The notes under the pieces: generated by a model | What the model saw: only the letters and a program-made list of their open reading frames with translations | Database searches by the model: none | What the model was told of the DNA's origin: nothing | Made by a program: the position numbers and the translations under genes | Shown here: in pieces, positions 8,490-53,869 of the stretch | Layout of the letters: every line of letters begins with the position of its first letter | Position numbering within the stretch: the first letter of the stretch is position 1 | Origin: Poseidonia sp. | Lineage (GTDB): Archaea; Thermoplasmatota; Poseidoniia; Poseidoniales; Poseidoniaceae | Assembly (NCBI GenBank): GCA_965661285.1 | Contig: CBFIDD010000002.1 | Location: 316,515 to 380,514, forward strand | Length of the DNA: 64,000 nucleotides | Direction of reading: 5' to 3'

Positions 8490-8515
8490 TGAGGCGTATC
8501 AATCGGTAGCGTCTG

Positions 8516-8587
8516 ACAAGACCCACTGCAAGCCCTCTGATGAGGTCAAAACGAATCAGTGGGTTTGTGCATTGACCCTTTGATTCG
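8516..8587. repeat. left ~72-bp inverted repeat bounding the low-GC cassette
   Basis: 8521-8587 (ACCCACTGCAAGCCCTCTGATGAGGTCAAAACGAATCAGTGGGTTTGTGCATTGACCCTTTGATTCG) matches the reverse complement of 11679-11751 with only a handful of mismatches. Internal hairpin potential (ACCCACTG ... CAGTGGGT). Confidence 0.75.
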
Positions 8588-8611
8588 TTAGTATAACCAT
8601 TGAATCAGCCT

Positions 8612-9799
8612 CTACTTTGCTTTTCGATCTGAATATGAACTCAACCATGCCTCATCAATCATTTCGTTAATCCAATATTTACTTCGTTTTATTATCGTCA
8701 TGAGTTGCCTTCCATGTATTAACTTCAATGGATATCTTAGTTCATGAACCTCTTCTTGTGCTTGTTTTGAGAAAAATGAGGTGGTGACATAAATCCCATA
8801 TTCTCCTCTGTCGAGTCTTGCAACTAAGCGCGATAATTGAACGGGATTAATGTAGTTTGAACTGGCATACCTCTTCACCTCTCCTTTCAATTTAATCTCA
8901 AATCTGAATGGTTCATCAATCATCATTGAACCTATGAAATCAAATCCTCCGTCTCCACTATTCTTGGTTTTTTCTAGATTTTTGAATAAAGTGCCTCCGA
9001 CTTCAAGGAAAAGATCAACGATTATTTGTTCAAAGACATACGGGTTAATTTCATTCAAGCGTTCCAATGCCATCCATTCTGGAGAATTGGTTGGTGGTAA
9101 TTGATCTTCTTTTGTCAAAATTGAATCATTCCAAGCGGTAAGATATGAGTGGGCATTCCTTGATACGTATTCTCTCCAAGCAAGAGGAGATTTGTCCAGT
9201 CGGGAATCAAGTTCCTCATGCTTGCGCCAATTCGTCAACCAATCAATCGCAACCTGTGGGGTATTTAGAATTCGTAAAGTTGCTCTGTAATTCCTAACAG
9301 GTATGTCTCCATCCATGAACCACTCAACGTCTAATTTTTCTAGAATGCACAAACCGTTGAAGCGATTATATCCCGTTCTTTTTGTGAAATGGAGAATGAA
9401 GGAAGGTTGAGTTGAACCGTTGCGGAGGTTTTCATCGAGCGCCTTCAGTACTTTGTTTCCTTTGAAATCATCAAGAGACTTATCTGGGTCTGCAACTGAA
9501 TCGCCCCAGTAATAAATTACACCATTGTGCTGGTCAACAATATCATCCCAAGGTTTAGGAGTATTCGTTTTACCTGAGTGAGTGAACAAAAACACACCGT
9601 CAATTTGCTTCTTTCTTGATGAGTTTGGAGATTTCAATGCTCTAATGCCCCCTGCATTAGTCAACCCGGATTCAGGTAGGTTAACCCAACTCAGAAATTG
9701 GTCTTCCGGATCGTCTTTCCTTTTTGCGTCTCTGTACTCTTTGCCGACCTCAAAGAATTTCCCAGAGCCTGCTGTAATCCAGTTATCTGAACCACTCAT
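8612..9799 (-). CDS. Mrr-catalytic-domain (PD-(D/E)xK) nuclease fusion; candidate modification-dependent (Type IV / MspJI-AspBHI-like) restriction endonuclease with an unassigned N-terminal ~250-aa domain
   Basis: C-terminal 130 aa match the Mrr_cat pattern: FEQIIVDLFLEVGG ... SGDGGFDFIG ... EIKLKGEVKRY ... GIYVTTSFFSKQAQEEV ... LKLIHGRQL (D ... ExK intact). N-terminal domain has no obvious family. Solo gene, no methyltransferase nearby. Low GC. Confidence 0.7.
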   Translation of the reverse strand: MSGSDNWITAGSGKFFEVGKEYRDAKRKDDPEDQFLSWVNLPESGLTNAGGIRALKSPNSSRKKQIDGVFLFTHSGKTNTPKPWDDIVDQHNGVIYYWGDSVADPDKSLDDFKGNKVLKALDENLRNGSTQPSFILHFTKRTGYNRFNGLCILEKLDVEWFMDGDIPVRNYRATLRILNTPQVAIDWLTNWRKHEELDSRLDKSPLAWREYVSRNAHSYLTAWNDSILTKEDQLPPTNSPEWMALERLNEINPYVFEQIIVDLFLEVGGTLFKNLEKTKNSGDGGFDFIGSMMIDEPFRFEIKLKGEVKRYASSNYINPVQLSRLVARLDRGEYGIYVTTSFFSKQAQEEVHELRYPLKLIHGRQLMTIIKRSKYWINEMIDEAWLSSYSDRKAK

Positions 9800-9840
9800 G
9801 AATTCCCCTCAACTGTTGTGGTAATTGAAATTATCACATT

Positions 9841-9925
9841 AATCAGAGGGTCACTCTGATTAGGCCTCAAAGCAGAGGGTACCCACTGCTTACCCATCTG
9901 AGCAAAGGGCGCCCTCTGAAGAATA
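9841..9925. repeat. degenerate third copy / hybrid of the cassette repeat between the nuclease gene and the TetR gene
   Basis: AATCAGAG-GGTCA-CTCTGATT palindrome (9841-9861). TCAAAGCAGAGGG. ACCCACTGCTTACCCATCTGA (cf. ACCCACTGCAAGCCCTCTGAT in the left repeat). GGGCGCCCTCTGAAG. Confidence 0.5.
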
Positions 9926-9935
9926 ATTATCCAAC

Positions 9936-10586
9936 CTAGATCCAACCCTTAAGAATCGTGTGTATACCCGCTTTTAGTTCAACACTCATATCGAGGTTAA
10001 GAAACGTTAAGTCTGGGTGTTTAAGGGCAGATTTGGAAGGGCTTGAGGGGTTTGCCAGAGGATAAAGTCCCAAGGCGAAAGCCAACATCTGTCCAAATGC
10101 TTGAAGGGCATCTTCTAGTCTGGTAAAATGCCCGTTTCTCATTAATGCCTCTGCACCTCTCTGCATGAGTGAGAGTAGATTCAACTTATGTTCAATTAGC
10201 ACTTCAACTGAAACCTCTCGTTCATACAATGCTGGAGTAAGTGAAAAAAGAGAAAGAAAGCGATATTCCTTGAGAAAGATTTTGGTGATGGCACTCGCAA
10301 ACATATCTAAATCGCTTAATTCAAGTTTGGAATCTTCCTCTAATCCGAGAACTACGTCCTCAAAATCGCATAGATGAACATGAAGAAGCAACGATTGGAT
10401 GTTCTCAAAATATCTGTAAATACCGCTCGGTGAAATTCCAACCGAGCTGGCAAGCGGACGCATTCGAAGATCCAGCGGGTCAGTTGTTTTGAGAAGCGTG
10501 CGGACGGCTTCAACAATCGCTCTTTTTCTGACTTCACGATGCTCAGTTGAACGAGCGCGTTGGAAGGGAATCTCTGGGCCAGTCAT
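9936..10586 (-). CDS. TetR/AcrR-family transcriptional regulator
   Basis: N-terminal HTH (RKRAIVEAVRTLLKTTDPLDLRMRPLASSVGISPSGIYRYFENIQSLL). 216 aa. Divergent from an SDR gene. Confidence 0.8.
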   Translation of the reverse strand: MTGPEIPFQRARSTEHREVRKRAIVEAVRTLLKTTDPLDLRMRPLASSVGISPSGIYRYFENIQSLLLHVHLCDFEDVVLGLEEDSKLELSDLDMFASAITKIFLKEYRFLSLFSLTPALYEREVSVEVLIEHKLNLLSLMQRGAEALMRNGHFTRLEDALQAFGQMLAFALGLYPLANPSSPSKSALKHPDLTFLNLDMSVELKAGIHTILKGWI

Positions 10587-10625
10587 GTGAATAACCCCTG
10601 CTCTGGGTGGAGGACACTTGAACTT

Positions 10626-10654
10626 AACGGAACACTGTTTCGTTAAATATATAT
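10626..10654. promoter_or_regulatory. candidate TetR operator palindrome plus TATA-like box in the TetR/SDR divergent intergenic region
   Basis: AACGGAACAcTGTTTCGTT (10626-10644, one mismatch from a perfect palindrome) is immediately followed by TTAAATATATAT. The TATA overlaps the first ATG of the SDR ORF, so the SDR more likely starts at the Met at 10677. Confidence 0.35.
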
Positions 10655-11660
10655 GGAGGATTTGGTTCGGCGAATCATGCCTCGTTCTCTCCGAATTGAC
10701 CCAAGCCTTCGTAACATCGACCTCTCCGGAAAAAGATACGTCATCACCGGTGGCTCAAGCGGCTCAGGACAAGCCACGGTTGAATTCCTTGCAAAGCAGG
10801 GTGCCGAGGTGATCACCACGGGACGAGATCTGGCTCGTGGGCGTCAAAATTTTGAATCCCTACCGCTCGCTGTCCAGGGACGAATCACACTCCTTCATCT
10901 TGATTTAGAAAACATGGAAAGTGTCGAAAAGTTTGCAGCTGAGGTAAACAAAAAGTGGCAGTCGTTTGATGCATTGGTCAACAATGCGGGAGGTGCCCTC
11001 ACGAAAAACGGCACTTTCGAGCTAAACAGAAAAACATACGACAAACAATTTGTCGGCAACCATATAGGGGTATTCCACCTCAGTAACTTACTTCTTCCCG
11101 GGCTTGAAGCCAATGATGGGGCTCGACTCATCAACGTCTCATCCGTCATGCACGACCAGGCGAAAGGTTTGCAGTCGACTCAGGCTCAGATACATTGGGA
11201 TGACATCCATGCCCGCAAGCGCAAGTTCGATGGGTTTGACCAGTATGCTCAATCAAAACTCGCCAACCTCCTTCACGCAAAATCGCTGGCAAGGAAGTAC
11301 GATAAAGACAACATTGCTGTTTTCCCCGTTCACCCAGGGACGATCAGCAAAGGCAGTCGTTTCGGCCGTTCGATGGGACCACTAATGCGCGCAATGATGG
11401 TCCCTCTTAGCATCCTGATGGGACCTATCATGCGCCCCATCACGAAGGAAGACGGCGCTCAGACCACCCTCCACTGCCTGCTTTCCGAGGAAGCTCTGAA
11501 CCACCACGGAGTGTATCACGCTCAAACCGGACTCAAACACAGCGACGGTGTTCGCGGGGGCTGGCCGTACCGGTCAGCCAATCCGTTGTCTCATGACGAA
11601 GCCGCTCAGGACCAATTGTGGAGCCTGAGTGAGGAACTTGTGGCAGAATTGAAAGCCTGA
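10653..11660 (+). CDS. short-chain dehydrogenase/reductase (SDR), retinol-dehydrogenase-like
   Basis: ITGGSSGSGQATVEFLAKQGAEVITTGRD (Rossmann TGxxxGxG). VNNAGG. 335 aa. Probable true start at 10677 (MPRSLR...). Confidence 0.85.
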   Translation: MEDLVRRIMPRSLRIDPSLRNIDLSGKRYVITGGSSGSGQATVEFLAKQGAEVITTGRDLARGRQNFESLPLAVQGRITLLHLDLENMESVEKFAAEVNKKWQSFDALVNNAGGALTKNGTFELNRKTYDKQFVGNHIGVFHLSNLLLPGLEANDGARLINVSSVMHDQAKGLQSTQAQIHWDDIHARKRKFDGFDQYAQSKLANLLHAKSLARKYDKDNIAVFPVHPGTISKGSRFGRSMGPLMRAMMVPLSILMGPIMRPITKEDGAQTTLHCLLSEEALNHHGVYHAQTGLKHSDGVRGGWPYRSANPLSHDEAAQDQLWSLSEELVAELKA

Positions 11661-11678
11661 TTCAATCCACAATTCGTC

Positions 11679-11751
11679 GAATCATAGGGTCAAAGCACAA
11701 ACTCACTGATTCGTTTTGACCCAATCAGAGGGCTTGCAGTGGGTCGAATCA
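11679..11751. repeat. right ~72-bp inverted repeat bounding the low-GC cassette
   Basis: Reverse complement GATTCGACCCACTGCAAGCCCTCTGATTGGGTCAAAACGAATCAGTGAGTTTGTGCTTTGACCCTATGATTCG aligns base-for-base with 8516-8587. An additional palindrome CATCAGAGGGGCCCCTCTGAG lies at 11779-11799. Confidence 0.75.
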
Positions 11752-11808
11752 CTCGCTACCCTGAGATTTGGCAACCCATCAGAGGGGCCCCTCTGAGTCG
11801 TCGCCGTC

Positions 11809-41880: not shown

Positions 41881-44800
41881 TCACCGCTGCGGGATGGCTT
41901 GCATTTGAGCGATTTCACCGCTCATTCGCGTCAGTGCTTGGACAGCGACCTCTTGGTGTTGAGGGCCCATCTCTTCTCGACTGTACCGGGCCATCTCAAA
42001 CGTGTTGTCGAGGGCGGTCAGAGCATCCTCTGACACGCCCTGCAGCGCTTGGCGGATGGCGAATTCGAATTCCCGAACGGTTTCGAAGTCACGTCGGAGG
42101 AAGCCACGCTGCTGCAGCAGACCGCAGAGGTCCTGATAGCAGGTGAAGATGGCTTCTCGTGTTGCATCCCCGGCCGCCAACAACTCGGCGGTGTAAGCGA
42201 AGACCTCGGCCGCATCCTTGAGCAGGTCGTCGGCGAGTTGCTTTCGTCGGTACATCACGACGCCACCGGCGATGAGCGCGGCGAGCGCAAGCACGAGGAG
42301 GTAGGACCACCACGGTGTTTCCGCTTGTTCTTCTGCAAATTCGTATTGCACAGCAAAGCCTTCACTTCGCAGTGATTCAAAGCCCTGAAGGCTTTGGGCT
42401 GAAAGGCGAGGATCGTTCACGATGATATCCATGGTCAACTGGCCCCAAACATCAGCATCGCCGTATGGCGGGTCAGCATCGAACACAAAGGTGGCTTTCC
42501 CGGTTTCATCGGTTTGAGCACCACGGTTGGCGAGTTGGGATTGGTTGGCATCGTAGAGATAAATGACAACATCAATCCCCGGCAAGCCCGTACCCGTATC
42601 TTCGGCGATAACGGTGAGGGAACCGCCCACGTCTTCTTGTTCGTCCTCAACCACCTCGAGGAGGTCTACGGTGATGACGGCGTCGACCTGTACAAACACC
42701 GTTTGACTGATGCTGGCAGCGTTGAGGTAAAGGGAATCGTTTCGAGCGACGTCAAGGAAGAAATACTGCGAACCGACTTCGAGCCAATACGGCGCCGTTG
42801 CGGTCAGCGAGAAGTTTCCGTTTGACCACACGACGCTGCTCTCTGTGAAGCAGCGTGCTCCTTCCCGACCACCCTCACAATCCGAACCGTTCCCAATGCT
42901 CAGCAGGAGGTTCTCAAAGACCTCACCTGAGCCTCCGATCTCCTGCACAGAACCCGAATAGAAGACGGGTTCAAACACACTATCAGAGCGGGTGACGACG
43001 TTCGTGTTTGAAGTTGGGTCGACTTGAATCAACAGGTCAGCCCATACCCGAACACTGCTTTCTACGTCGGCTGGAAGATGCGCCTGCGTCCCTCCAAAGA
43101 CCACGCCGATGGTGTGTTCGCCCCGGGACAAGTCCATGGTTGCAGGCACCGTTGCGCTCCACGCACCATCAGCACCGGTGGTGGTCGTGAAGAGCGTGTT
43201 TCCGTCGAGTTGGACGAGCAATTCGAATCCGACCAAACCGTCGCGGTCAACGGTGTCGAAGTCGTACAGGCGGCCACTCAATTCCCATGTGTCGCCACGG
43301 GTGGCATCAATACCATCGTCGAACACCAAGGTGACCCATGAACGATGGGAGAGGAAGAACGAGACGTTTCCTTCCCCGGCACGGTAATATCCTTGTGGGG
43401 GTGATTCTGCGAACAAGGTTCTGTTCCCGAAGTCAAAGATGTCGGGAACGACCCAGTCATAGGTGAACGCACCGTTTTGGTCGGTGGTCAAGGTGGAGAT
43501 GACGATGCCTTCCACGACCAGTTGAACTTCGTGGTTTGCAACGCCCACGAGTTGATTGTCAACCACCGAACCGGTGATGGTCACGGTTTGGTTCACCGCC
43601 ACCGGCGAGGAAATATCCACCGTTACGAGGACTGGACTGAAGATTTCCCACAAACCACTGGCGTTGCTGGGGAGGTAAGCCACGGTCCCGGTGAATCGGG
43701 TTTCCAGAACCACTGGACCAAGCGGAGCGTCTGCGGGCACAGGATGGACCGCAGAAAACTCGCCAAGTTCGTCCGTCGTCGTGTTGGTCAGCCACTGACC
43801 ACCCAGCCATACCTCGATGGTCAGGTTCGGTAGCGGGTTGTCAACCACATCGAGAAGACGGCCTTGGATGGTGATCGTTGTTTCTCGGTCGGCATCGCCT
43901 GTTGCGGTCAACAGGAGAATCTTCGTGGGTACGCTAACGTTGAATTCCACCATCGCAGAGCTGGGTTGGTAGTATTCGGGATTGTTGGTGTCCCCGTAGC
44001 CGACAGGGTCAACCCATTCACGACCACCACGGAACTCCACCGAGATTTGGTGGGGACCTGCAGCCGTGTCTTCTGGGAGCGCGTACGAAAGGGTGTATGC
44101 ACCCGAGATGTTGTCCGTTTCAATGCTGGCAACGGGAACGCCATCGATGAGAAGGTGCACCACGGCAGTGGAAGGTACACCGTTTCGTTGCAAGACCAAG
44201 CCCAGGTCGTCCAACAGCGTGCCGTTCACGACCAACATGTCGCCAGCCACCAGCACCGTTGGTGCTTCGGTGATGGTAACCTCGGTCGCACCGAGGACGA
44301 CAAAGGACGAACTGGCGTTGGTTCCAATGATGCCCGTGGTGCCGGCGATTCCGGTGTAGTCCGCATGGATGCCGGTCGGGCCGACGCTCATGTTGGCTGG
44401 GACGGTCAGGTTGCCCCAAGCAGAACCGTTGGAAGCCGTCAAGACCGTGATTTGGACGGGTGAAGCATCGTTCAGCGTCGCCGTGAGCGAGACGAGGACG
44501 CTTTGATTAGCCAGCGGGAGGCCTTGGTTGTCCCGGAGGAGAATCGAGAACTCAACGATGTCTCCCCTTTCGGTTCGGTCGTTCAACGAGGGTTGACCGA
44601 TACCGTCAAGTGCGGGGAGAATGAAATTCATGACCGAGAACCCACGAGAATCGAACGAGGTGTTGTTGGTCGAGCCAACGTAATAGTTGACACTCGGGAT
44701 GTAGGTGGCTTCCATCACGTGGCTACCAGCGGCGAAGGTTTCACTGAGGCGAATCGTGGCGTTCCAATACCCATCAGCACCGACGGCACCGCCTGTGGCG

Positions 44801-47800
44801 GTGAAGCCAGTCGGTTGGCCGTCAATGGAGAACAACACGTTGGCGTTCGCCAAGACGGAGTTGTCCCGCTCAACCAGTCCCGAGCCGTTGTCGGAGGTGA
44901 TTTGCCCGCTGATGTTGAAGGAGGTTCCTGCAACGGGGTTGGCTGCGATGCTGTCAACGACCATGAAAGTCAACGAGCGCACGGTGATGCTGGTCAGGTT
45001 GGCGCTGGTTGAAAGGAGGTCGGTGGAACCGTTGAACACCATCTGAACCACGATGAGGCCCAGAGGATGGTCATAGGGCACGTTGTAGGTGAAGTTGGCA
45101 AACCCTTCTCCGTCCGTGGTTTGTGGCAGGAGCCATGTTTCGTGGAATTGCAGCGCCACCTCGTAATTCGAGAGAGGAGTAAACAAGTCTGAGGCTTCGA
45201 CAAGTTGCGCTGACATGTTGATGTCGTTTCCACGGTTGATGACCACGGCATTCAACGGCTGGAGGTTCTCGAGGCGAGAGACGCCCATGACCTGGATGGG
45301 CGATTGCGCCGTGGCGGTGAGATAGAACGGCGAGGACTCGTTGACGACGGTGACCACCAGCGTGTGCGGGCCACGGGTCGTACCGTTGCCGGCCGTGTCG
45401 GTTGGCACGGTCATGTTGAAACTCCCGTTGTTGGTTGTGGCGTAGTTGCTCAAGAGCAACTCTTCGGGGTTTTCTAGCCAGAACACGTTCAGCCTGACGG
45501 CGGAAATGAGTGGACGGGTTGCGTTCTCAGCGTCTTCAACCTGCCCGACGACGTTGAACGGGACGCCTGCCGTTACCGTACTTGGCACAGAGATGAGCGA
45601 GATATCGCTGGTGACTTGCACGGTCACGTTGATCACAGTCAAATTACCGTAGCGGCGCGAGTTACCTTCACTAAGAGCTGCTGTGAGGTCGTCCTGAACA
45701 ACGATGCCGACGTCGTAGAACCCGGGTGCAATGCCCGACGGTGTGAAGTCGAACGTGGAGTTTCCTTCGCCGTTTGAGACCACCGTTCCAAGGCTTTGGT
45801 TTGACTTACCGTAATCCCAGACATAGTCAACGCTTGCTCCGCTGATGTTGGAGTTGTCCGCAATGTCGGTGATCTTCGCCGTGAATGAAACCGTGTTGTT
45901 CATCTCCACGATGTAGGATGAGCGTTCGGCCTCCACCACAACCTCGGTGATGATCCCACCCAGCGTGGATATTTGTGCTGGGGGTGCAGGGGGGACGGAC
46001 GTATCCACAAAGGCGTAGTATGCGCCGCCCGCAGGCGCTTGACTGACGAAGTCAAAGTCAAGAATGAATTCATAAGCGTCTGAACGGAGGTTCATCGGCA
46101 TCCTGATAGGGATATCAAAGGCACCTGTGCTGTTGTTCAAGGTTGATTGCGCGATGTCGATGGGCCCTTGTTCGGTGAACAGGCTGACACTGATGAGCGT
46201 GGTGTTGTTGAGGACCGGCGTGAGATAGACCGCATCAAAAACATCGCCGACAAGTCGGGTCGAGTTGCCCATGAATGTCCAATCCTGCCCGATGGAAAGA
46301 TTCCATCCGATGTTGGCCATGACACGTAGGGAACCGAGTCCAATTGAGGGTTGGTAAAACGATGAACCGTTGAAGGAGATGCCGATGGGGTAGTCGCCCG
46401 AGCGTAGGTTGGCATCGAGAGGGATCACAATTTCCAACACATCGGTTTCCGGATCCACGGTGGTGTTGAACCACGACCCATTGAAGGTGAAATCGTAATT
46501 GCCGAAGATTTCAACGCCGGCGCCCACGCCCCGATGGTCGTTGATCTGCACACTGACAAAAGCATCCTGTCCACGCACCTGTGATGACTCCTGGACCTCA
46601 AACGTCAGCAAGCCTCGGAGGAAGTACGGGGGGTCGACCGTCAAGTTAGCGTCGTCCGTTGCTGGCAGCGTTGAGGGGAAGAAACGCAATCGCGTCTCGA
46701 TAGCGCCGGCTGCTACACCAACGTTGGTTGGCATGGGATACTGAACGGTGAAATTCCCGGTGACACTTTGATTGAACAACTCCACCCAAACATTTCCGGA
46801 ATCCAAGGCCCGAATGGCAAACTGTAGGTTCCCTGTCAGAGCCGTTGGCGTTGGGCCGAGGGACAGGGCACTTCCGTTCACCCAAACGTCATCACCGAGG
46901 AGGAAAACGCTCCTGTTGCTGGTCAGAGGACCTTCGATGGTGGCCGTTAGATTTGGGGCCTCGGTGACGTTGAAGGTAATTGAGGTCGTGGTCGGGTTGA
47001 GATGGAAGAGAGCGGGTGTTGAACCTGGAACGGAGGCATCTTGCCAGCCTGAGAATCCAAGGGTCGCCGATAACGGACCGAGCGTCTCGGCCTCGCTCAA
47101 GTTGATCGAGATGCTCCAGGAGCCACTGATGTCGGTTTGTGCAGTGAGATTTTGCGCTCCGTCAACTGAAGAAGTGTACGACAGCCACACGGTTTGATTT
47201 GGCAGATTGGAGATTTCATCAATCGGTTCATTCGCCAGAGCCAAGCGGCCCTCGAGAACGGTTGTGGCGCCCGCGCCGACAACCGGGGTGTTGATGGCCA
47301 AGGGTGCGGTGTGGACGATGGTGGTGTTCTCGGTCAAATTGACGTAGCCTTCGAAAATAACGCCATCATGCGAAACATAACCGGATTGACGGTGTTCGAT
47401 GACGATGTTGTGCATACCGGGTGCACTGGGTGCGTCGGGGAAGCCGATCATGCTGAAATTGCCGTTGGGGTCAGTGATGTTTTCCTCAAGCAGGAGTGAA
47501 AGGTCAGCGCCTGGACCAGGGACAAAGGGTGCATCACTTACGGGTGAGAGGTAAGCGAACACACGAATATTGGATGCCGGAGTGCCGTTGGCGGCATACC
47601 TCAACTGCCCTGACACCGAGATGCTCTCGGTACCGTCCCGAGCAACGGTGAACGTTGAGATGGTTTGGTTAACGACCTCGATCTCCTCAGCTGGTGGGCA
47701 CGGGTCAAAGGCAATCCATCCGAGGTCGGTGTTTCCGTTGGCGCTGTTTTGCTGCAGTCGAACCTCCGACCACGTGGCGGCGTCCGAGGCGTAGACGGCA

Positions 47801-50800
47801 TAACCTTCGCCTGTCCATGTGCCTCCGATGTAGCCCGTCACCTGACGAGCAGGAAGCCCAGCAAGACGAGCCATGGTCACGAAGGCCGTGTTAAACTCAC
47901 GACACGAACCCTCTTTCACGGCTTCAACCACATTGAGGGTGACGTCCATCGGACTCATGGTTCCCGAACCGTTGAAGTTACGCTTGAACTCGGTCGTAGC
48001 ATTGCCGTTGGTGAGGAAGTCTTCCAGGGCAAGCGCCGTATTGTAAGCATCCGTTGCCCCTGCTTCGGCAATGACAGCGGCCGTGACGTTATTCACGTAT
48101 GAGAAGGCCGAAGAAGAGTCGGTAAACTGAGGGTCGACAAGCAGCTCGTAAGGGAAGCCTTGACCGGGGACGGTCGTTGACGCCAAGTTTGCCCAATCAA
48201 AGTAATACTCAGGTTGTTCGTACAAGACCTGCTCTACAGAACCAGCAACCAGCGAGAGCATGTGCGTATCGTTCGACCTTGAGATGTTGGCTGAGGTTTC
48301 GAAGACGAATGAGATGTTGGAATAATATGCAGGAGCAGGGATTTGCCCTGTCGTTATGGGGCGGTTGAATTGAAGGTTCCACTGGACGGTTGAGTTGGCA
48401 AGGGAAATCGGTGCGAGGTGAGTAAAGTTGCTCATGGGAACAACGACCGCCTCCGAGGGATGAACGCTGTCGAGGTGCGCGTAGGTGCTTCCGGTGTAGA
48501 AGTCATTGGTGATGGTGCGCCACCGATGGTCGCCGTTGAGATCGACGACTCCCGAGGTATTGTTTGCGAAAAAGACAACATCATCCGACATGATGTCATC
48601 GCTGGGGTCAAACACATCAAAGGGCGCGCCTATGCAATCAAAAACCCAAAATGCATCAGGACACTCATCACCGTCAAGCATCCCACCACCGTCTGTATCG
48701 GGGTTGGTCCAGTCGGTTCCGGTTTGATTCTCAACGGCATCGGGCAATCCATCACCGTCAAAGTCGGCGGGTTGAATATCATCAGAAGGATCGTTTTGCG
48801 GGTTCGTTCCGTCAAAGTATTCACTGCGGTCATCCACGCCCCCCTGGTCGGTATCGAACGCGTTGGGAGCTGTCACCCAAACATCTTGGGAGCCGTTGGT
48901 GATGCCGATGTAAATCAAATCACAGCCAGTGGTGTTCTCAAAGTAGTTGTTGAGTCCGTCGGCGTCATCGTCCAAGAGATTTGAACACGGCTGATTGGGA
49001 TCGGTGTTGTCCTGAACTTCGTCAAAGTCATTCACGCCGTCAGCATCGCTGTCGGCGATGCTGGGATTGGAGAACCATCCAAAGGTCCCGAGAAGTTCTT
49101 GCCAGTCTGCCAGACCATCACCGTCGGTGTCCTCGTAATCGTCGTCGCAATACTGCTGCGTTGTGCTGATTGTTCCTGAATTCGTGGCAGCCGTGTGGCA
49201 AAATGAACCGTTGCGATTTGCTACCTGGGTCGCCACGCCCGAGGGCCCGTTGGAAACACCCTGCAGAATGTTGGCAACCACAGTCGCGTAGGCAAAACTT
49301 TCCCATGTTCCGGATACGTTGTACCAACCAACGCCCCCTGCGGGGTTGAAACCCGAGCCGTTTCCTACTTCGACCCTGCTGGCGCTGAGTTCCTGCACGA
49401 AGGTGGTCTCAAAGTTCACAAGTGAATCGCAAGGATCCGTACCGTGGCTGATGTTTCGTTCCTGCCCGTCGTTGATGCCGCCAAAGTCCGTGTCGGCCAC
49501 ATTCCACAGCGTACACGTCAGGTTTTCCTCCCAGTTCTGTATGCCGTCCTGGTCTTCGTCTCCTGAATCCTCACGGCGTGTGGGGTCCGTCTCACCGGCA
49601 TCCAACACACCGTTGAAGTTGGTGTCTTCCTCGCCGTCATCAAAAGCATCCCCGTCGGTGTTGTTGTTGCGCGGGTCGCTGGCTTGGGCAGGGTTGCCGT
49701 AAGCACCGTTCACCTCGATACCGTCGCTGATCCCGTCGCTGTCGGTGTCCGAAGACGTTGGATCGGTCAGCAACGTAAAGGCTTCGTACGAATCGTTCAA
49801 CCCGTCGCCGTCGGTGTCTGCCCTCTGCGGATCTGTCGAGGTGATACCGTCAACCTCAGCGGTAAATGTGGCACAACCACCCGGTCCAATGCCTTGGACT
49901 GGGTCGCAGGGCGAGGTGGTCTCGGTGACGATGCCATCGGGGCCGTTGCGGAAACAGGGCGAAGAGCCGCACATGGTCGTCCATGTCGGGTTGACGTACT
50001 CGAGGAGGTTGTTCAGGCCATCACCGTCGGGGTCGCCGTTTGGACCGTCAGCGTTGGAGGGCGAGGTGGCGTTCAAGCCGTTAGCGGCTTCCCAACCGTC
50101 GGGCATGCCGTCGCCGTCGGTGTCCCAACCTGCGGGGTCTTCATCGATGACGCCGTCGCCATCATCGTCATCCGATAGACAATCGGCATCGCCGTCGTTA
50201 TCCGAGTCCGCCGAGTCGACAAATCCGTCTTTATCATCATCAAATCCATTGGCGCAAATATTCCCGACGGGGTCCTCGTCGCAGAGGATGATCGAGCCCG
50301 TGCCGTCGGAACCTGCCGCACCGCATGCGGGTTGGTTGAACTGCATGGCGTCTTCCTCGTTCCAGTCGTTCACGGGAACGGTGCCGTTCCACCAAACACC
50401 GTTGTCCAGGACAGAAGCGGTGTTGGTGTTGTCCCAACCGCTGGGTTGGAGGTAGAGGTATTCTTGCAAATTGGACATGCCGTCGCCATCCGGGTCAGCG
50501 ACTGCGCCATCGGCACCGGTGGACGACAACGGGTCGAGGCCGTACTTCCACTCCCAGCCATCGGGCAAGCCGTCGTTGTCCGAGTCGGGGTCGTTGGGTT
50601 GGGTGTTCATGAGGTACTCAAGGCCGTACGTGAGACCATCACCGTCCTGGTCGGATGCTGCTTGAACATCAACGACCGTGTACTGAATGGAGGCGAGGGT
50701 GGAGAGGACCATCAAGAGGGTGAGTGAGAGCGACTTGAGCGCTTTTTTCCGCTCTGCGAGGGCTGGTCGAATCGCGGCCGCATTGGAATTCGAGCCTGTC

Positions 50801-50814
50801 AGCATGAGTCTCAC
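41881..50814 (-). CDS. giant (2977 aa) membrane-anchored surface protein: signal, TSP3 Ca-binding repeats, transglutaminase-like core (His apparently replaced), many Ig-like/beta-sandwich repeats, TM, DUF4129-like cytoplasmic tail
   Basis: Signal LSLTLLMVLSTLASI. N-terminal DxDxDG repeats. TGase-like GSCREFNTAFVTMARLAGLPARQVTGY ... ATWSEV ... WIAFDPCP. C-terminal WWSYLLVLALAALIAGGVVMY TM then RRDFETVREFEFAIRQAL ... FEMARYSREEM. Confidence 0.8.
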   Translation of the reverse strand: MRLMLTGSNSNAAAIRPALAERKKALKSLSLTLLMVLSTLASIQYTVVDVQAASDQDGDGLTYGLEYLMNTQPNDPDSDNDGLPDGWEWKYGLDPLSSTGADGAVADPDGDGMSNLQEYLYLQPSGWDNTNTASVLDNGVWWNGTVPVNDWNEEDAMQFNQPACGAAGSDGTGSIILCDEDPVGNICANGFDDDKDGFVDSADSDNDGDADCLSDDDDGDGVIDEDPAGWDTDGDGMPDGWEAANGLNATSPSNADGPNGDPDGDGLNNLLEYVNPTWTTMCGSSPCFRNGPDGIVTETTSPCDPVQGIGPGGCATFTAEVDGITSTDPQRADTDGDGLNDSYEAFTLLTDPTSSDTDSDGISDGIEVNGAYGNPAQASDPRNNNTDGDAFDDGEEDTNFNGVLDAGETDPTRREDSGDEDQDGIQNWEENLTCTLWNVADTDFGGINDGQERNISHGTDPCDSLVNFETTFVQELSASRVEVGNGSGFNPAGGVGWYNVSGTWESFAYATVVANILQGVSNGPSGVATQVANRNGSFCHTAATNSGTISTTQQYCDDDYEDTDGDGLADWQELLGTFGWFSNPSIADSDADGVNDFDEVQDNTDPNQPCSNLLDDDADGLNNYFENTTGCDLIYIGITNGSQDVWVTAPNAFDTDQGGVDDRSEYFDGTNPQNDPSDDIQPADFDGDGLPDAVENQTGTDWTNPDTDGGGMLDGDECPDAFWVFDCIGAPFDVFDPSDDIMSDDVVFFANNTSGVVDLNGDHRWRTITNDFYTGSTYAHLDSVHPSEAVVVPMSNFTHLAPISLANSTVQWNLQFNRPITTGQIPAPAYYSNISFVFETSANISRSNDTHMLSLVAGSVEQVLYEQPEYYFDWANLASTTVPGQGFPYELLVDPQFTDSSSAFSYVNNVTAAVIAEAGATDAYNTALALEDFLTNGNATTEFKRNFNGSGTMSPMDVTLNVVEAVKEGSCREFNTAFVTMARLAGLPARQVTGYIGGTWTGEGYAVYASDAATWSEVRLQQNSANGNTDLGWIAFDPCPPAEEIEVVNQTISTFTVARDGTESISVSGQLRYAANGTPASNIRVFAYLSPVSDAPFVPGPGADLSLLLEENITDPNGNFSMIGFPDAPSAPGMHNIVIEHRQSGYVSHDGVIFEGYVNLTENTTIVHTAPLAINTPVVGAGATTVLEGRLALANEPIDEISNLPNQTVWLSYTSSVDGAQNLTAQTDISGSWSISINLSEAETLGPLSATLGFSGWQDASVPGSTPALFHLNPTTTSITFNVTEAPNLTATIEGPLTSNRSVFLLGDDVWVNGSALSLGPTPTALTGNLQFAIRALDSGNVWVELFNQSVTGNFTVQYPMPTNVGVAAGAIETRLRFFPSTLPATDDANLTVDPPYFLRGLLTFEVQESSQVRGQDAFVSVQINDHRGVGAGVEIFGNYDFTFNGSWFNTTVDPETDVLEIVIPLDANLRSGDYPIGISFNGSSFYQPSIGLGSLRVMANIGWNLSIGQDWTFMGNSTRLVGDVFDAVYLTPVLNNTTLISVSLFTEQGPIDIAQSTLNNSTGAFDIPIRMPMNLRSDAYEFILDFDFVSQAPAGGAYYAFVDTSVPPAPPAQISTLGGIITEVVVEAERSSYIVEMNNTVSFTAKITDIADNSNISGASVDYVWDYGKSNQSLGTVVSNGEGNSTFDFTPSGIAPGFYDVGIVVQDDLTAALSEGNSRRYGNLTVINVTVQVTSDISLISVPSTVTAGVPFNVVGQVEDAENATRPLISAVRLNVFWLENPEELLLSNYATTNNGSFNMTVPTDTAGNGTTRGPHTLVVTVVNESSPFYLTATAQSPIQVMGVSRLENLQPLNAVVINRGNDINMSAQLVEASDLFTPLSNYEVALQFHETWLLPQTTDGEGFANFTYNVPYDHPLGLIVVQMVFNGSTDLLSTSANLTSITVRSLTFMVVDSIAANPVAGTSFNISGQITSDNGSGLVERDNSVLANANVLFSIDGQPTGFTATGGAVGADGYWNATIRLSETFAAGSHVMEATYIPSVNYYVGSTNNTSFDSRGFSVMNFILPALDGIGQPSLNDRTERGDIVEFSILLRDNQGLPLANQSVLVSLTATLNDASPVQITVLTASNGSAWGNLTVPANMSVGPTGIHADYTGIAGTTGIIGTNASSSFVVLGATEVTITEAPTVLVAGDMLVVNGTLLDDLGLVLQRNGVPSTAVVHLLIDGVPVASIETDNISGAYTLSYALPEDTAAGPHQISVEFRGGREWVDPVGYGDTNNPEYYQPSSAMVEFNVSVPTKILLLTATGDADRETTITIQGRLLDVVDNPLPNLTIEVWLGGQWLTNTTTDELGEFSAVHPVPADAPLGPVVLETRFTGTVAYLPSNASGLWEIFSPVLVTVDISSPVAVNQTVTITGSVVDNQLVGVANHEVQLVVEGIVISTLTTDQNGAFTYDWVVPDIFDFGNRTLFAESPPQGYYRAGEGNVSFFLSHRSWVTLVFDDGIDATRGDTWELSGRLYDFDTVDRDGLVGFELLVQLDGNTLFTTTTGADGAWSATVPATMDLSRGEHTIGVVFGGTQAHLPADVESSVRVWADLLIQVDPTSNTNVVTRSDSVFEPVFYSGSVQEIGGSGEVFENLLLSIGNGSDCEGGREGARCFTESSVVWSNGNFSLTATAPYWLEVGSQYFFLDVARNDSLYLNAASISQTVFVQVDAVITVDLLEVVEDEQEDVGGSLTVIAEDTGTGLPGIDVVIYLYDANQSQLANRGAQTDETGKATFVFDADPPYGDADVWGQLTMDIIVNDPRLSAQSLQGFESLRSEGFAVQYEFAEEQAETPWWSYLLVLALAALIAGGVVMYRRKQLADDLLKDAAEVFAYTAELLAAGDATREAIFTCYQDLCGLLQQRGFLRRDFETVREFEFAIRQALQGVSEDALTALDNTFEMARYSREEMGPQHQEVAVQALTRMSGEIAQMQAIPQR

Positions 50815-50893: not shown

Positions 50894-53869
50894 TCACAAA
50901 TCTTCGAGTTCCTCGAGCAGCTCGAGGTCGTCGTCATCGTCGTCTGCCAGCACAGGCGCAGGTAAATCATCGTCGTCCTCAATCGGCTCAAGTTCCTTTT
51001 CAAGACCCTCGTAGTCCTCGTAGTCTCCGTAGTTAGCAAGGTCAGGACTATCATCGCTGCGGCTTCCACGACCTCGTGCGTAGAAGAGCAGGGCCAAAAT
51101 TACAACGTAAAACGCAATGGTTTGCGGTTCAGGACTGACCAGTTCTCGCAGCAAACAGTTGGCGCCGCTGCATTCCGTCATGTAGTTGAAGGTGAAGGTC
51201 TGGACATAGTCTTCGGAGTACGGTGTCTCGTTGTTCATGGGCGTGACTCTGAACTCAAAGGCTGCTTGCTGGCTGTCTTTGAGATCTTCAGGAGCCTGCA
51301 TGGTCACGCTGAAATCCTTTGAGGAATATGCGGGGAGGTTGATGATGAGGAAATCGCTCCCCAACTGGTTTGAGGTCGCCCGGATGGCGCCCTCCCAACC
51401 ATCGGGTTGGTCAAGGCGAATCACGACGTCGAGCGGGATGTTGTTTTGGTTGCTGATGCGATATTCGAGGCTCTTTGATTCGCCCGGAGCGAAGCGAGAT
51501 TTCTCGGTTTTATCCGTGAGCTCGATGCGGTTTGGAACGACTTCTTCCTGAATGACAACCTTCACCGGGAGGTCGAAGTAGCGAGCGTCGTCAATGTCAA
51601 CACCCTCCTCGATGATGCGGGTGTAGACCGTGTGCTCACCCGCTTCCACCTGACCCCTCAAGGTGATGTCGAGTTTCATGTCGACGTACTCATCCGGGGC
51701 GAGGTTCACCGCCACCAAATTGGAGTTGCTGCCGTTGGAAATGACGTAGTCCCATGCAGCATACTTCGGGTTGTTTTCGGCGTTTTGTTCAACATCACGG
51801 GGATTGATGATCTTCCAGGTGGTTGAGCCAGAACCGGTGTCGCTGGAATCGGTAATTCGGAGATTGAAGTACACCGACGCATCGCCGGTGACCGGTCCAA
51901 CTTGACCGAGCGGATTGTCCTCGCCCGTCCCGTCGCTGTCCGAAATCACCTCGACAAGAATGCCAAACGTCCGGTGAACGGTGAAGGCGATGTCGGTGCG
52001 AAGTTCTGAATCTTCCTTGCTGGACACCGAGATTTCAAACAAACCGATGTCGACACCGTCTCGGTCGGCTGGAGGATAGACCTCCATTCGAATCGTCAGG
52101 ATTTGGGTCGAGCCGATGTCGGGCGTGAGCGAGTAGATGCCTTCCTCTGCGAGTTCAAGACCGGTATCGTTGTCGTAAAATCGGTACTGCCAGTCATCGG
52201 GTTGCTCAAGAATTCGCATTTTGAACGAGTCGGTCTGGAATCCCAAGTTGAAGACGTCGATGAAGAAATCACCGACCTCATCTGCATCCACGTAGTGCGA
52301 AAGGGTCTCATCATAGGCTTCCGGACGCGTTGAATCTGCGATTTGTTTCTGGTGCTCATCGTCTTCGTAGACAAAGAGACGTGGCGCGGCAAGGGTATCC
52401 ACTTCCTCGAATTCTAGCGTGAGGGTTCGTATGGCCACCTCTTCGTTTTGGCCGAGTTCGTTCTGTGCATAGACTCGTGCTTCGATTTCCAAGGAATCGG
52501 GCGCACTGTCCAAATCGCCCTCAGGAACTTCGAGTTGGAGTTCGGGGATGACCGATGCACCGCCGCCGTTGAGCGTGTAGGTGCTGCTTGGTGCGCTCCA
52601 CTGTGGGTCTGACCATGTTGAGGGGAGATTGGTTTCTAGGTCAAAGATCACGTCAATGCTGCTCGATGAGGAGCCCGTATGTTCCACGAGGAATTCGACT
52701 TGGACGACCGCACCGGGAGCGAATAAGACCACATCGGGCTGATTTGAGGGCAGGGTGAGGTAAATGTCGTTCTCAAGCATGGTGATGCCGGGGTGTTCAA
52801 ACACAACGGCGTGGCCCTGTACGTCCTCCACCTCAAGGCGAACGGGGTAGTCACCCGCAGCGATGCCTGCCTCGTAAGTGTAAGTGAAGTTGCCCACCAA
52901 GCCGTTGTTGTCGAGTTTGAAATCATCATCGTCAAAGTTCTTCTCGAAAACCACGTTTGCGCCGTTGGGCGTGTCCATGATGAGGTTGACCTCCTCAATG
53001 TCATCTCGGCCAAAGGCGTCGCGAACTTCAACGGAGAACTGCATCTCTCGGAAGTCAGGACGGTGGTTGGGGGACCACTCAAATTTCTGGGCGTCGTTCC
53101 AGTTGCACCCGAAGGCTTGGTTGCAACTGTGGACGCGTACGCTCGAACCGGAGAGGGCGTTGGTCATGACCTGGAGACGGGAGTACCCTCCCGAGCTTTC
53201 CATCTTGCCAAAGGCGATGTCAACCGCACAATCGCCACCACCCACACCGCCGGTGTTGCCTTCGCAGGTGGCTTGGGCGTCAATGCGGATTTTCAGTTGC
53301 TTTCCTTTGGCCACCATGAACCCGTTGGGCCCGGCGTCAAACTCCACTTCGATGATGCTCCAATCGCAGCCGCCCCCGGTGAAGGGGTTCGGCGAGCATG
53401 CATCTTCCAGTTGTCGGTTCTCTGAGGAAATTTGGGTGTCGCCCGACTTGAGCGAAAAGGTGACATCTGCGGTGGAACCCTCGGCGCCACGGAATTGGAT
53501 GTAGACAGACAGGCGAGCGGTGTTGGAGGAACCGCTTCCGTTGATGTAGAGGTCGCTGATCATCTCGGCGCTTCGGAACTCCAATCCGTCAATGGCGCTG
53601 CCTTCTTCCTGGCCGCCGTTGGGTTCAATTGTGGTAATGGAACCTTGCCCGCCGGTTTCTGAGGTCGCAGCATCGAGATAGAGTTCGTAGGTTTGCTCGG
53701 GGACAGAAACAGGAGCCACAACACGCTCGTCGTCCAGTGTTTGAATCGGCGTGAGAACAGGCGCTGCGGGCACCATCATGCCCACCAAGGAGAACACGAA
53801 CAACGCAACGAGACCAAAGGCCACGGTGCGCTTGCCATTTCCTGAGTCACCAAACAGCATCAAGTCCAC
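50894..53869 (-). CDS. large (991 aa) surface protein with N-terminal anchor/signal, C-terminal TM and poly-acidic cytoplasmic tail
   Basis: TVAFGLVALFVFSLVGMMVPAAPV near the N-terminus. Beta-rich acidic ectodomain. C-terminal AFYVVILALLFYARG TM then DDDDLPAPVLADDDDDDLELLEELEDL. Confidence 0.6.
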   Translation of the reverse strand: MDLMLFGDSGNGKRTVAFGLVALFVFSLVGMMVPAAPVLTPIQTLDDERVVAPVSVPEQTYELYLDAATSETGGQGSITTIEPNGGQEEGSAIDGLEFRSAEMISDLYINGSGSSNTARLSVYIQFRGAEGSTADVTFSLKSGDTQISSENRQLEDACSPNPFTGGGCDWSIIEVEFDAGPNGFMVAKGKQLKIRIDAQATCEGNTGGVGGGDCAVDIAFGKMESSGGYSRLQVMTNALSGSSVRVHSCNQAFGCNWNDAQKFEWSPNHRPDFREMQFSVEVRDAFGRDDIEEVNLIMDTPNGANVVFEKNFDDDDFKLDNNGLVGNFTYTYEAGIAAGDYPVRLEVEDVQGHAVVFEHPGITMLENDIYLTLPSNQPDVVLFAPGAVVQVEFLVEHTGSSSSSIDVIFDLETNLPSTWSDPQWSAPSSTYTLNGGGASVIPELQLEVPEGDLDSAPDSLEIEARVYAQNELGQNEEVAIRTLTLEFEEVDTLAAPRLFVYEDDEHQKQIADSTRPEAYDETLSHYVDADEVGDFFIDVFNLGFQTDSFKMRILEQPDDWQYRFYDNDTGLELAEEGIYSLTPDIGSTQILTIRMEVYPPADRDGVDIGLFEISVSSKEDSELRTDIAFTVHRTFGILVEVISDSDGTGEDNPLGQVGPVTGDASVYFNLRITDSSDTGSGSTTWKIINPRDVEQNAENNPKYAAWDYVISNGSNSNLVAVNLAPDEYVDMKLDITLRGQVEAGEHTVYTRIIEEGVDIDDARYFDLPVKVVIQEEVVPNRIELTDKTEKSRFAPGESKSLEYRISNQNNIPLDVVIRLDQPDGWEGAIRATSNQLGSDFLIINLPAYSSKDFSVTMQAPEDLKDSQQAAFEFRVTPMNNETPYSEDYVQTFTFNYMTECSGANCLLRELVSPEPQTIAFYVVILALLFYARGRGSRSDDSPDLANYGDYEDYEGLEKELEPIEDDDDLPAPVLADDDDDDLELLEELEDL

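Follow-up and report, generated by a model that had tools for sequence, protein, structure and literature searches.

We describe here a low-GC (guanine plus cytosine) insertion in the marine archaeon Poseidonia sp., which lies between the TA dinucleotides at 8507-8508 and 11757-11758 of a 64-kb stretch of contig CBFIDD010000002.1 (hereafter called "the window"). The insertion probably consists of two non-autonomous mobile gene cassettes of one marine Poseidoniales family (mostly Poseidoniaceae), which entered at one TA in the gap between convergent core genes and are moved in trans by a serine recombinase. One cassette carries a restriction endonuclease (RE) gene, and the other carries a TetR-family regulator together with a short-chain dehydrogenase/reductase (SDR). 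We are highly confident of one part of this picture: the long inverted-repeat arms of the region terminate two independent cassettes, which are integrated at TA and belong to a Poseidoniales-wide family.

The features of the locus, including the repeat element that we call R, are as follows (ORF, open reading frame; L-numbers, L001 to L220, denote the public contigs or loci fetched for comparison with the window).

8499-8506, no strand: left, host-side half of the target core (TCAATCGG), which follows the stop of the host ORF 8181/8202-8489 by 10 nt; the same in the empty site of L032, and fitting the consensus TCA-N4-S-TA.
8507-8508, no strand: junction TA no. 1, between host and RE cassette; this TA is invariant or nearly so across 94 unique repeat junctions.
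8509-8611, minus strand: 3′ repeat R of the RE cassette (left arm), found by repeat search and by nhmmer (E=3e-35); it aligns with 93 other unique copies.
8612-9799, minus strand: cargo 1, an AspBHI-like methyl-directed restriction endonuclease of 395 aa, assigned with Pfam and PADLOC.
9800-9879, minus strand: 5′ end of the RE cassette, whose reverse complement shares its architecture with other cassette 5′ ends (single-stranded DNA, ssDNA, fold z = -3.5 to -4.1).
9880-9881, no strand: junction TA no. 2, the head-to-head joint of both cassettes, GGG-TA-CCC within the palindrome GGGTACCC; the identity of the TetR-SDR cassette to its copies in other contexts begins at ~9880.
9882-9935, plus strand: 5′ end of the TetR-SDR cassette, identical in all contexts, with at least nine different sequences adjoining it on the left.
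9936-10586, minus strand: cargo 2a, a TetR-family regulator of 216 aa (PF17929, 6.5e-19; PF00440).
10587-10652, no strand: putative TetR/SDR divergent promoter region, a 66-bp spacer from which both genes diverge.
10653-11660, plus strand: cargo 2b, an SDR of 335 aa (PF00106, 4.6e-29).
11654-11756, plus strand: 3′ repeat R of the TetR-SDR cassette (right arm), found by repeat search and by nhmmer (E=4e-33), ending ...GCAGTGGG-TCGAATCACTCGC.
11757-11758, no strand: junction TA no. 3, between TetR-SDR cassette and host, placed by comparison with the empty site.
11759-11800, plus strand: host right half of the target, CCCTGAG-N12-ATCAGAGGGGCCCCTCTGA, with a hairpin at 11780-11795; retained in the L032 empty site and close to true cassette 5′ ends in L148, L155, and L095.

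A repeat search of the window delimits the inverted arms at 8505-8587 and 11678-11760 (83 nt, 88% complementary, spaced 3090 nt), and a repeat profile widens the similarity to ~105-108 nt (8504-8611 and 11654-11760), to where the neighboring genes have their stop codons. Within the 64 kb, the 21-mer ACCCACTGCAAGCCCTCTGAT is confined to two places, one per arm, where shuffled sequences lead one to expect none. The motif ATCAGAGGG occurs four times against 0.5 expected, always within or adjoining the region. The GC content is 0.406 in the RE cassette (8509-9879) and 0.488 in the TetR-SDR cassette (9882-11756), as compared to 0.567 and 0.569 in the flanks; along the window it runs at 0.37-0.50 inside the insertion and 0.55-0.60 outside. 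A preliminary description of the window had reported near-perfect inverted repeats around an AT-richer interior with an Mrr-like nuclease, a TetR and an SDR gene, and neither transposase nor integrase; each of these observations holds, the last by a Pfam scan of the three cassette ORFs. It had also seen a degenerate third repeat in the middle (~9838-9925). The shared sub-motifs are there (ATCAGAGGG at 9842 and ACCCACTGC at 9881), but the R profile does not detect this element as an R copy, and it reads instead as two cassette 5′ ends abutting at the TA at 9880-9881. The cassettes lie on opposite strands with their R elements outward; therefore, the region acquires a long inverted repeat, and the 5′ ends meet in its middle.

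How do we know that the region is inserted? Public assemblies were searched for exact matches to the flanking proteins, and this gave the orthologous loci. The conspecific contig L032 is 99% identical to the window in both flanks and has nothing between the two core genes, which bears out the mobile insertion suggested in the preliminary description. Its empty site reads ...ATCAATCGG-TA-CCCTGTGATTTGG...CAGAGGGGCCCCTCTGAG..., with CCCTGTG beginning right of the TA, while the filled site of the window reads ...ATCAATCGG-TA-GCGTCTG...[3.25 kb]...CACTCGC-TA-CCCTGAGATTTGG..., with CCCTGAG on the right host side. The empty site thus contains one TA, and the filled site n+1. Other alleles occupy exactly the same position in L033-L041, whose flanks are 96% identical. 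In L033-L037, an SDR/TetR pair of 70% identity lies there in reverse orientation with direct R copies, and it is followed by a 71-aa ORF in L033 and by a 95%-identical restriction gene in L034. L007, from another species (~80% identical), has homologous R copies at the same place with different cargo between them, and nine further species-level relatives have an unrelated small ORF and no repeat at this position.

The right flank of the host is itself a textbook cassette 5′ end. It contains a perfect 16-nt palindrome, CAGAGGGGCCCCTCTG (11780-11795), which lies 13 nt downstream of the 936-aa gene, is terminator-like, and corresponds to the hairpin of the canonical cassette 5′ end; it is kept in L032 and absent from the orthologous loci of other species. 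Therefore, the empty site looks like a docking site, with 11759-11800 resembling a resident cassette 5′ end. Two further observations concern orthologous positions. In L033 (7900-7960), the last cassette, with the 71-aa ORF, has no TACCC-type head and joins the host inside the hairpin CAGAGGG(C)CCCCTCTG; this join may mark another point of exchange, or else be the scar of a deletion. In another species, L003 (10676-10800) has, relative to L002, an AT-rich insertion of ~123 bp in the orthologous intergenic/small-ORF region, which is unrelated to R.

The two cassettes behave as separate units. The stretch 9880-11743 (or 11762) of the window recurs with 98-100% identity (99.2-100% except in L025) in over 20 contigs; these come from unrelated samples, among them Tara, the Great Barrier Reef, and Galapagos. 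It has at least nine distinct neighbors on its left (left of TACCCACTGC..., 9880) and at least six on its right (after ...CGC-TACC(C)). Because the neighbors vary on both sides, the TetR-SDR unit moves with only one repeat, the right arm. In the public assembly collection, 137 blocks index the exact TetR protein and 55 the exact SDR protein, the latter mostly on contigs shorter than 5 kb. By symmetry, the restriction gene and the left arm appear to be the second unit, on the minus strand. Consistently, its 5′ end (the reverse complement of 9838-9879), TA-CCCTCTGCTTTGAGG...ATCAGAGTGACCCTCTGATT, has the same design as the TetR-SDR 5′ end, TA-CCCACTGCTTACCCATCTGAGCAAAGGGCGCCCTCTGA, and in L034 the RE cassette, with a 95%-identical gene copy, stands in direct orientation behind a different cassette. 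The Logan contig L001 is identical to 8562-9905, carries the RE gene, and has both ends inside the repeats, as one would expect at branch points of assembly graphs. This 1.3-kb contig is the only one besides the window in which the exact RE protein was found, and since it ends in the repeats, it shows the gene neither linked to TetR-SDR nor apart from it; across the loci, the two units are not always together between two repeats.

To define the family, we searched public collections with the R profile (~105-108 nt) and an 18-mer from the R core. In the one-genome-per-species GTDB set, the 18-mer hit 45 stretches, 36 of them with true R; the remaining matches are bare 18-mers, of which ~17 are expected by chance in 596 Gb. 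The genomes with true R are labeled Poseidoniales, Poseidoniaceae, Poseidonia, or euryarchaeal metagenome-assembled genomes (MAGs) or single-amplified genomes, for all but one contig. This exception, L059 (CAXQWT010000068.1, labeled as a Salipiger bermudensis MAG), has a full-length R with a normal TA junction; most likely it is archaeal DNA that was wrongly binned with a bacterial MAG. Marine metagenomes add at least 120 contigs with the 18-mer, while IMG/VR gave no match. In total, we collected 257 R copies in 181 fetched loci, often at contig ends. R is therefore the dispersed repeat that the preliminary description had supposed: it is multicopy in the relatives of the window's own genome, nearly all Poseidoniales, and tightly tied to variable gene content.

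The 94 unique full-length R copies align without gaps, with a mean pairwise identity of 85% over the core (~65 nt). At the 3′ end, R reads ...GCAGTGGG-N13-TA, and the bases C-TA-CC around the junction are near-invariant. The junction consensus is ...TCA-N4-C-TA-CC-N3-TG..., in which TCA at -8 to -6 mirrors TG(A) at +7 to +9, and in more than 160 unique cases the junction is base-precise at the TA. Beyond it usually follows host DNA or the 5′ end of the next cassette; all four joint types (R with 5′ end, 5′ end with 5′ end, R with R, element with host) were found. The cassette 5′ end is ~45 nt long and starts with TA-CCC[A/T]CTGCTT. It comprises a motif M (CCCNCTGMTT, ~11 bp), an inverted M, and a third M, and these copies often form a hairpin 21-24 nt from the TA. 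R itself holds about five M-like motifs, the three nearest to the TA being spaced 11 and 13 bp apart. Among 68 pairs of neighboring R copies, 44 are direct, 20 face outward as in the window, and 4 are tail-to-tail, and the nearest cargo gene is directed toward R in 72% of cases. A structural model of R as RNA or ssDNA was dropped for want of covariation: the RNAalifold consensus has -3.8 kcal/mol with one of ten pairs compensatory, and single copies as ssDNA give z of -1.8 to -3.0.

The ends of the window's cassettes follow this scheme. On the plus strand, R of the RE cassette has GCGTCTGACAAGA as its outer 13 nt and TTGAATCAG as its inner end. The 5′ end of the same cassette shows the hairpin AATCAGAGGG-TCA-CTCTGATT (9841-9861) and the terminal motif AAGCAGAGGG (9870-9879), or, as the reverse complement, TA-CCCTCTGCTT...ATCAGAG..; the RE promoter is probably located within 9800-9879. 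In the TetR-SDR 5′ end, M1 is CCCACTGCTTA (9882-9892), M2, which is inverted, is TGAGCAAAGGG (9899-9909), and M3 is CCCTCTGAAGA (9912-9922). The TGA stop codon of SDR falls in the conserved inner end of R (cTGATTCAAT). At the outer end, otherwise identical TetR-SDR cassettes carry either TCGAATCACTCGC or CTTTGTCATAGCC as the last 13 nt, with the switch at 11743/11744 (window compared with L012, L014, L016, L022, L024, and L030). Such alternative segments imply exchange or gene conversion within R.

Which enzyme moves these cassettes? When all ORFs were scanned for motifs, YVRVSSQRQ turned up in a protein of ~262 aa that several arrays encode. It has a PF00239 (Resolvase) catalytic domain (1e-27 to 1e-30) followed by a partial PF07508 (Recombinase) domain, and its closest solved sequence is the catalytic domain of TP901-1 integrase (5.7e-16). 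In Foldseek, its AlphaFold model (predicted local distance difference test score, pLDDT, 78) has Bxb1 and other large serine integrases as the top matches, over 248 columns. According to the model and alignments, the protein ends after the recombinase domain and has no zinc-ribbon/coiled-coil domain; the absence of the coiled coil in the model suggests that directionality may not be built in. The gene is physically associated with R. By tblastn, 12 of the 165 loci (812 kb) fetched solely through the R 18-mer contain it. It lies beside the identical TetR-SDR cassette in L015/L028, and antisense inside canonical units running from 5′ end to R in L102 (1045-2836), L145 (1670-3666), and L207 (6806-10297). 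The L207 unit lies between ...ATCAGAGGG-TA and TA-CCCTCTGAT..., and its target would rejoin to a perfect 20-bp palindrome. In the reciprocal test, loci chosen only by recombinase homologues proved to have R-like repeats or junction cores. R was significant in two lineages, L207/L208 (2e-10) and L211-L216 (3e-8); the evidence is weaker in L209, with E=0.007 and a junction sequence, and in L210, which has just the degenerate start of a repeat, and a short one. On balance, we favor this mini serine integrase as the responsible enzyme.

At E<=1e-10, 795 clusters make up the recombinase family, almost all of them from contigs of 1-5 kb, and its relatives in IMG/VR are only 28-30% identical. In a comparison of the gene with 260 nt on either side (L015/L028, L088, L102, L145, L146, and L195), conservation is limited to the stretch between a TATA-like box, ~55 nt upstream of the gene (TATAAAAGAG...), and the stop codon, which varies among copies (TGA, TAG, TAA). 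The neighboring genes differ in every locus, with no conserved partner, such as a recombination directionality factor, beside the gene. The recombinase gene thus seems to be a tiny module of its own. Short proteins with catalytic and recombinase domains and without a zinc ribbon (225-285 aa) number 567 representatives of 50%-identity clusters at E<=1e-30, and the biology of such enzymes may be under-studied in general. In L211-L220 (for example, L211 620-6741), two paralogous serine recombinases of 269 and 261 aa, 52% identical and in the same orientation, bracket a conserved block of ~4.5 kb with eight small ORFs and a diverged R inside (L211 4249-4349). This block belongs to another marine lineage and was found in at least 10 metagenomes, its right flank varying among them. 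The nearest mention in the literature is a report that Charybdis elements integrated in Poseidoniales carry an "integrase/recombinase"; the block may relate to these elements, but an IMG/VR pattern scan with its 307-aa protein gave no viral relative.

The most serious alternative, which we regard as unlikely, is cut-and-paste transposition: the cassettes would be giant, cargo-carrying relatives of miniature inverted-repeat transposable elements (MITEs), mobilized by an IS630/Tc1-mariner-type transposase of the DDE (Asp-Asp-Glu) class encoded elsewhere, and the TA would be a target-site duplication (TSD). A TA does flank every element, and both termini share a short inverted motif (CCCACTG... 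and ...CAGACGC); reciprocal recombination at TA would yield the count of one TA in the empty site versus n+1 in the filled site just as well. On the other hand, the target resembles joined element ends (TCA..TA..TGA), a likeness typical of recombination that is conservative and site-specific, and unusual in the target choice of DDE enzymes, and the ends are grossly asymmetric (105 nt versus 45 nt). The serine recombinase is the sole recurrent recombination enzyme near R (~0.8 Mb); no DDE transposase was among the recurrent genes there within the top 25 families per scan.

Hijacking of the host XerA, as in the pdif modules of Acinetobacter, is less probable still. Here XerA would act on a dif-like core with the arms AAGCAGAG/CTCTGCTT and the 6-bp spacer GGTACC, and R would provide accessory sequences. 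The middle joint of the window, AAGCAGAG-GGTACC-CACTGCTT, is indeed 8-6-8 symmetric, and modules without their own recombinase, bounded by sites that are sometimes mutually inverted, are what such hijacking would produce. The three bases left of the TA vary, however (CGC, GCC, CGG, GGG, CCG), hence there is no conserved 6-bp overlap, and the arrays have a dedicated serine recombinase.

Could the cassettes be shuffled by homologous recombination between conserved repeats after DNA uptake, with no dedicated enzyme at all? The R copies are ~85% identical over ~65 nt, and the alternative outer 13-nt segments testify to exchange within R. This is nevertheless very improbable, because the empty site shares just the TA and a loose core with the cassette ends, its left side has no homology to R, and the junctions are precise to the base.

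The preliminary description had favored either a MITE-bounded mobile unit or an integron-like array of attC sites, and both readings now rank lowest, as next to incredible. A single composite unit mobilized by two flanking inverted MITE copies would account for the long inverted repeat at both ends, the low GC between, and the recurrence of the outward-facing arrangement in 20 of 68 R pairs. The halves, however, occur separately: the TetR-SDR cassette travels with its own single R in more than 20 other contexts, and the RE cassette of L034 is direct and follows a different cassette. Moreover, R was never seen as a self-contained insertion with its own terminal inverted repeats (TIRs) and TSD; it is always one end of a cargo unit. 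In a classical integron, or a cluster of attC sites lacking an integron integrase (CALIN), an IntI tyrosine recombinase would recombine attC sites. The cassette-like logic does recall integrons, which have been reported in Archaea (PMC9668308): the arrays consist of short, diverse cassettes, mostly of unknown function, and the ~100-nt repeat stands at the 3′ end of a gene in 72% of cases. The sites themselves are not attC. GTTRRRY lies within 25 nt of the junction in none of the 94 repeats, and RYYYAAC in their first 40 nt in two; the sequence is well conserved and covariation is negligible. The orientation is mixed (44 direct, 24 inverted), and many chromosomal loci are used, not one attI platform. 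As for the IntI-like enzyme anticipated in the preliminary description, the scanned window ORFs and the recurrent R neighbors gave no match to tyrosine-recombinase motifs or Pfam families, and the recombinase of the arrays is of the serine type. The main text of the archaeal integron paper (PMC9668308) does not mention Poseidoniales.

Trans-mobilization of the cassettes by the serine recombinase is thus the reading that we prefer, although several observations weigh against it. The TA flanks and the short, imperfect, inverted terminal motifs suit a TA-duplicating DDE transposase equally well, and a rare transposase could lie outside the top 25 families that were read in each bulk domain scan of the cargo. 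The core has only partial symmetry, since the C left of the TA is not the complement of the C right of it. Both the alternative outer 13-nt segments of the TetR-SDR cassette and the L033 join inside a hairpin point to exchange points besides TA. No circular contig was found among the fetched loci, and neither a circular form nor an excision joint was seen. No recombinase was detected by Pfam in the 29 of 43 window ORFs that were scanned (the 3 in the cassettes and 26 larger ones elsewhere). Finally, the recombinase could be mere cargo, for example an invertase, and the model does not explain why its conserved DNA stops at the promoter and the stop codon with all neighbors different.

We propose the following mechanism. 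Serine recombinases are known to make a 2-bp staggered break in the two strands, in the center of a quasi-symmetric site, and to exchange the half-sites. In the first step, the cassette would excise as a circle, whose joint of R, TA, and 5′ end would be the recombination site; for the TetR-SDR cassette, the expected circle joint is ...GCAGTGGGTCGAATCACTCGC-TA-CCCACTGCTTACCCATCTGAG. The ~262-aa serine recombinase, encoded by some family members, would act in trans, with the phased M motifs as accessory binding sites whose role may be comparable to that of res subsites.

Next, the enzyme would make a 2-bp staggered cut at the central TA of the quasi-palindromic core, TCA-N5-TA-N5-TGA, in the cassette joint and in the target, and the strands would be exchanged. 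The invariant TA, the partly symmetric core, the target resembling joined ends, and the four joint topologies are what is expected of a serine recombinase acting on a circle joint and a chromosomal TA. TA is self-complementary, and therefore insertion in either orientation would be allowed, giving head-to-head pairs and the "inverted repeat" of the window. New cassettes would preferentially land on the TA beside a resident cassette end, which would build up the arrays.

What do the cassettes carry? They are 0.3-3.5 kb long, with one to three cargo genes that have their own promoters. The 610 ORFs near R fall into 358 clusters, and 137 Pfam families were found in 150 representatives. The cargo includes TPR and pentapeptide proteins, T5orf172 endonucleases, oxidoreductases, and many membrane or secreted proteins, and, among defense genes, type I and II methyltransferases, restriction enzymes, MkoA, and DpdF. 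The cargo 1 protein of the window fits into this last group: PF18062 (RE_AspBHI_N, 1.4e-24, residues 32-215) and PF04471 (Mrr_cat, 9.7e-15, residues 249-369), with a full-length match to PADLOC mREase_II (7.4e-39), give it the domain arrangement of the AspBHI-type methyl-directed restriction enzymes, with a predicted N-terminal SRA-like AspBHI domain and a C-terminal Mrr catalytic domain. Recurrent R-adjacent unknowns of 225, 293, 423, and 483 aa were considered as novel enzymes and proved to be membrane or secreted proteins or repeats. The T5orf172/GIY-YIG cargos (four clusters) were rejected as homing drivers, given the base-precise junctions at TA and the empty site without homology arms. 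A second widespread cassette (L083, L084, L086, L090, L143, L153, and others) encodes a 181-aa protein with a C-terminal HVO_0163-type/ArsR-like helix-turn-helix, forms a cluster of seven near-R ORFs, and carries its own R variant with the inner end ATGCATGATACGATGA....

Around the insertion, the convergent core genes are a small membrane ORF (ending at 8489) and the gene of a 936-aa CCG/4Fe-4S protein (stop at 11809). Elsewhere, the window consists of archaeal core genes (rpoH-B-A′-A″, L7Ae, the 2-oxoacid dehydrogenase complex, and others). A tRNA-targeting island was rejected, as Rfam and tRNA scans of the window gave only two tRNAs, far from the locus. Two giant ORFs on the minus strand, 41881-50814 (2977 aa) and 50894-53869 (991 aa, with a weak NPCBM_assoc match), probably encode surface proteins.

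Poseidoniales (marine group II) are among the most abundant archaea of the surface ocean and are uncultured. To our knowledge, gene exchange among them is largely uncharacterized. A family of small, trans-mobilized cassettes, which in the limited sample retrieved numbers hundreds of copies and over 350 cargo families, creates strain-level variation at defined hotspots and accounts for the breaking of metagenome assemblies in such regions. We tentatively put forward, with slightly more doubt than belief, that Poseidoniales own a distinct gene-cassette system, a functional analogue of the integron, with a miniature serine integrase, multi-motif sites of ~150 bp, a palindromic TA crossover, insertion in either orientation, and many chromosomal hotspots, through which identical cassettes (defense genes, regulators, surface proteins) spread across ocean populations. 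If the ~262-aa serine recombinase is the engine, then this would be a form of cassette capture that evolved independently of integrons, and a compact, possibly orientation-blind integrase with a core of ~16-20 bp would be attractive for genome engineering.

How does this system compare with known ones? The searchable literature on archaeal integrons, Poseidoniales mobile elements, serine-recombinase cassettes, and pdif modules yielded analogues only and no prior description. Like the R cassettes, integron cassettes are small, hyper-diverse, recombinase-less units with one ~100-nt repeat, usually downstream of the gene, and they form arrays in which the junction lies inside a composite site and each cassette starts with the distal part of the preceding site. 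As in the Vibrio cholerae repeats of sedentary chromosomal integrons, the repeats are homogeneous within the lineage. Unlike attC, R is conserved in sequence rather than in fold and has no R′/R″ cores; unlike the cassettes of integrons, including the archaeal ones (Ghaly et al. 2022, PMC9668308), the R cassettes have mixed orientation, may hold several genes with their own promoters, occupy many loci instead of one attI beside intI (the same TetR-SDR cassette in at least six to nine chromosomal contexts), and are associated with a serine enzyme.

Three other systems share part of these features. In the IS607 family, which is common in archaea, the ends likewise have several short repeated motifs and the target is relaxed beyond the core dinucleotide. 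In IS607 TnpA, however, a MerR-like DNA-binding domain is N-terminal and the catalytic domain C-terminal, whereas the R-array enzyme begins with the catalytic domain followed by the integrase-type domain; the IS607-like structure 6dgc is a weak fold match to it, at rank 36. The pdif modules of Acinetobacter are also recombinase-less, with short, often inverted sites and the same module in many contexts, but they use 28-bp XerC/XerD sites on plasmids, as compared to the ~150-bp composites on archaeal chromosomes with a serine recombinase nearby. MITE-flanked units (integron mobilization units) and Stowaway/IS630 MITEs share the short multicopy repeat, the boundary TA, and the gene block between inverted copies; by contrast, R is no TIR/TSD-bounded insertion, there is one copy per gene block, and no cognate DDE transposase was found among the recurrent neighbors.

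The SCC/SCCmec elements (SCC, staphylococcal cassette chromosome; CcrAB/CcrC) and the clostridial Tn4451/Tn5397 (TnpX/TndX) use serine recombinases of the integrase lineage, with a circular intermediate and a 2-bp central crossover within a target similar to their joined ends. In SCC, recombinase-less elements are mobilized in trans and stacked in tandem. The R cassettes share with these elements the integrase-lineage serine recombinase, the presumed circle and in-trans mobilization, and the stacking. Defense genes also travel with SCC-type elements (PMC11470126). The R system differs in that its enzyme has just ~262 aa and no zinc-ribbon/coiled-coil directionality domain, the palindromic TA permits both orientations, the sites are long and multi-motif, and the units are 0.3-3.5 kb, scattered over many loci of an archaeal host. 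By analogy, the R cassettes appear functionally closest to integron cassettes and enzymatically closest to serine-integrase elements that are mobilized in trans and stacked, and there is a substantial chance that they deserve a class of their own.

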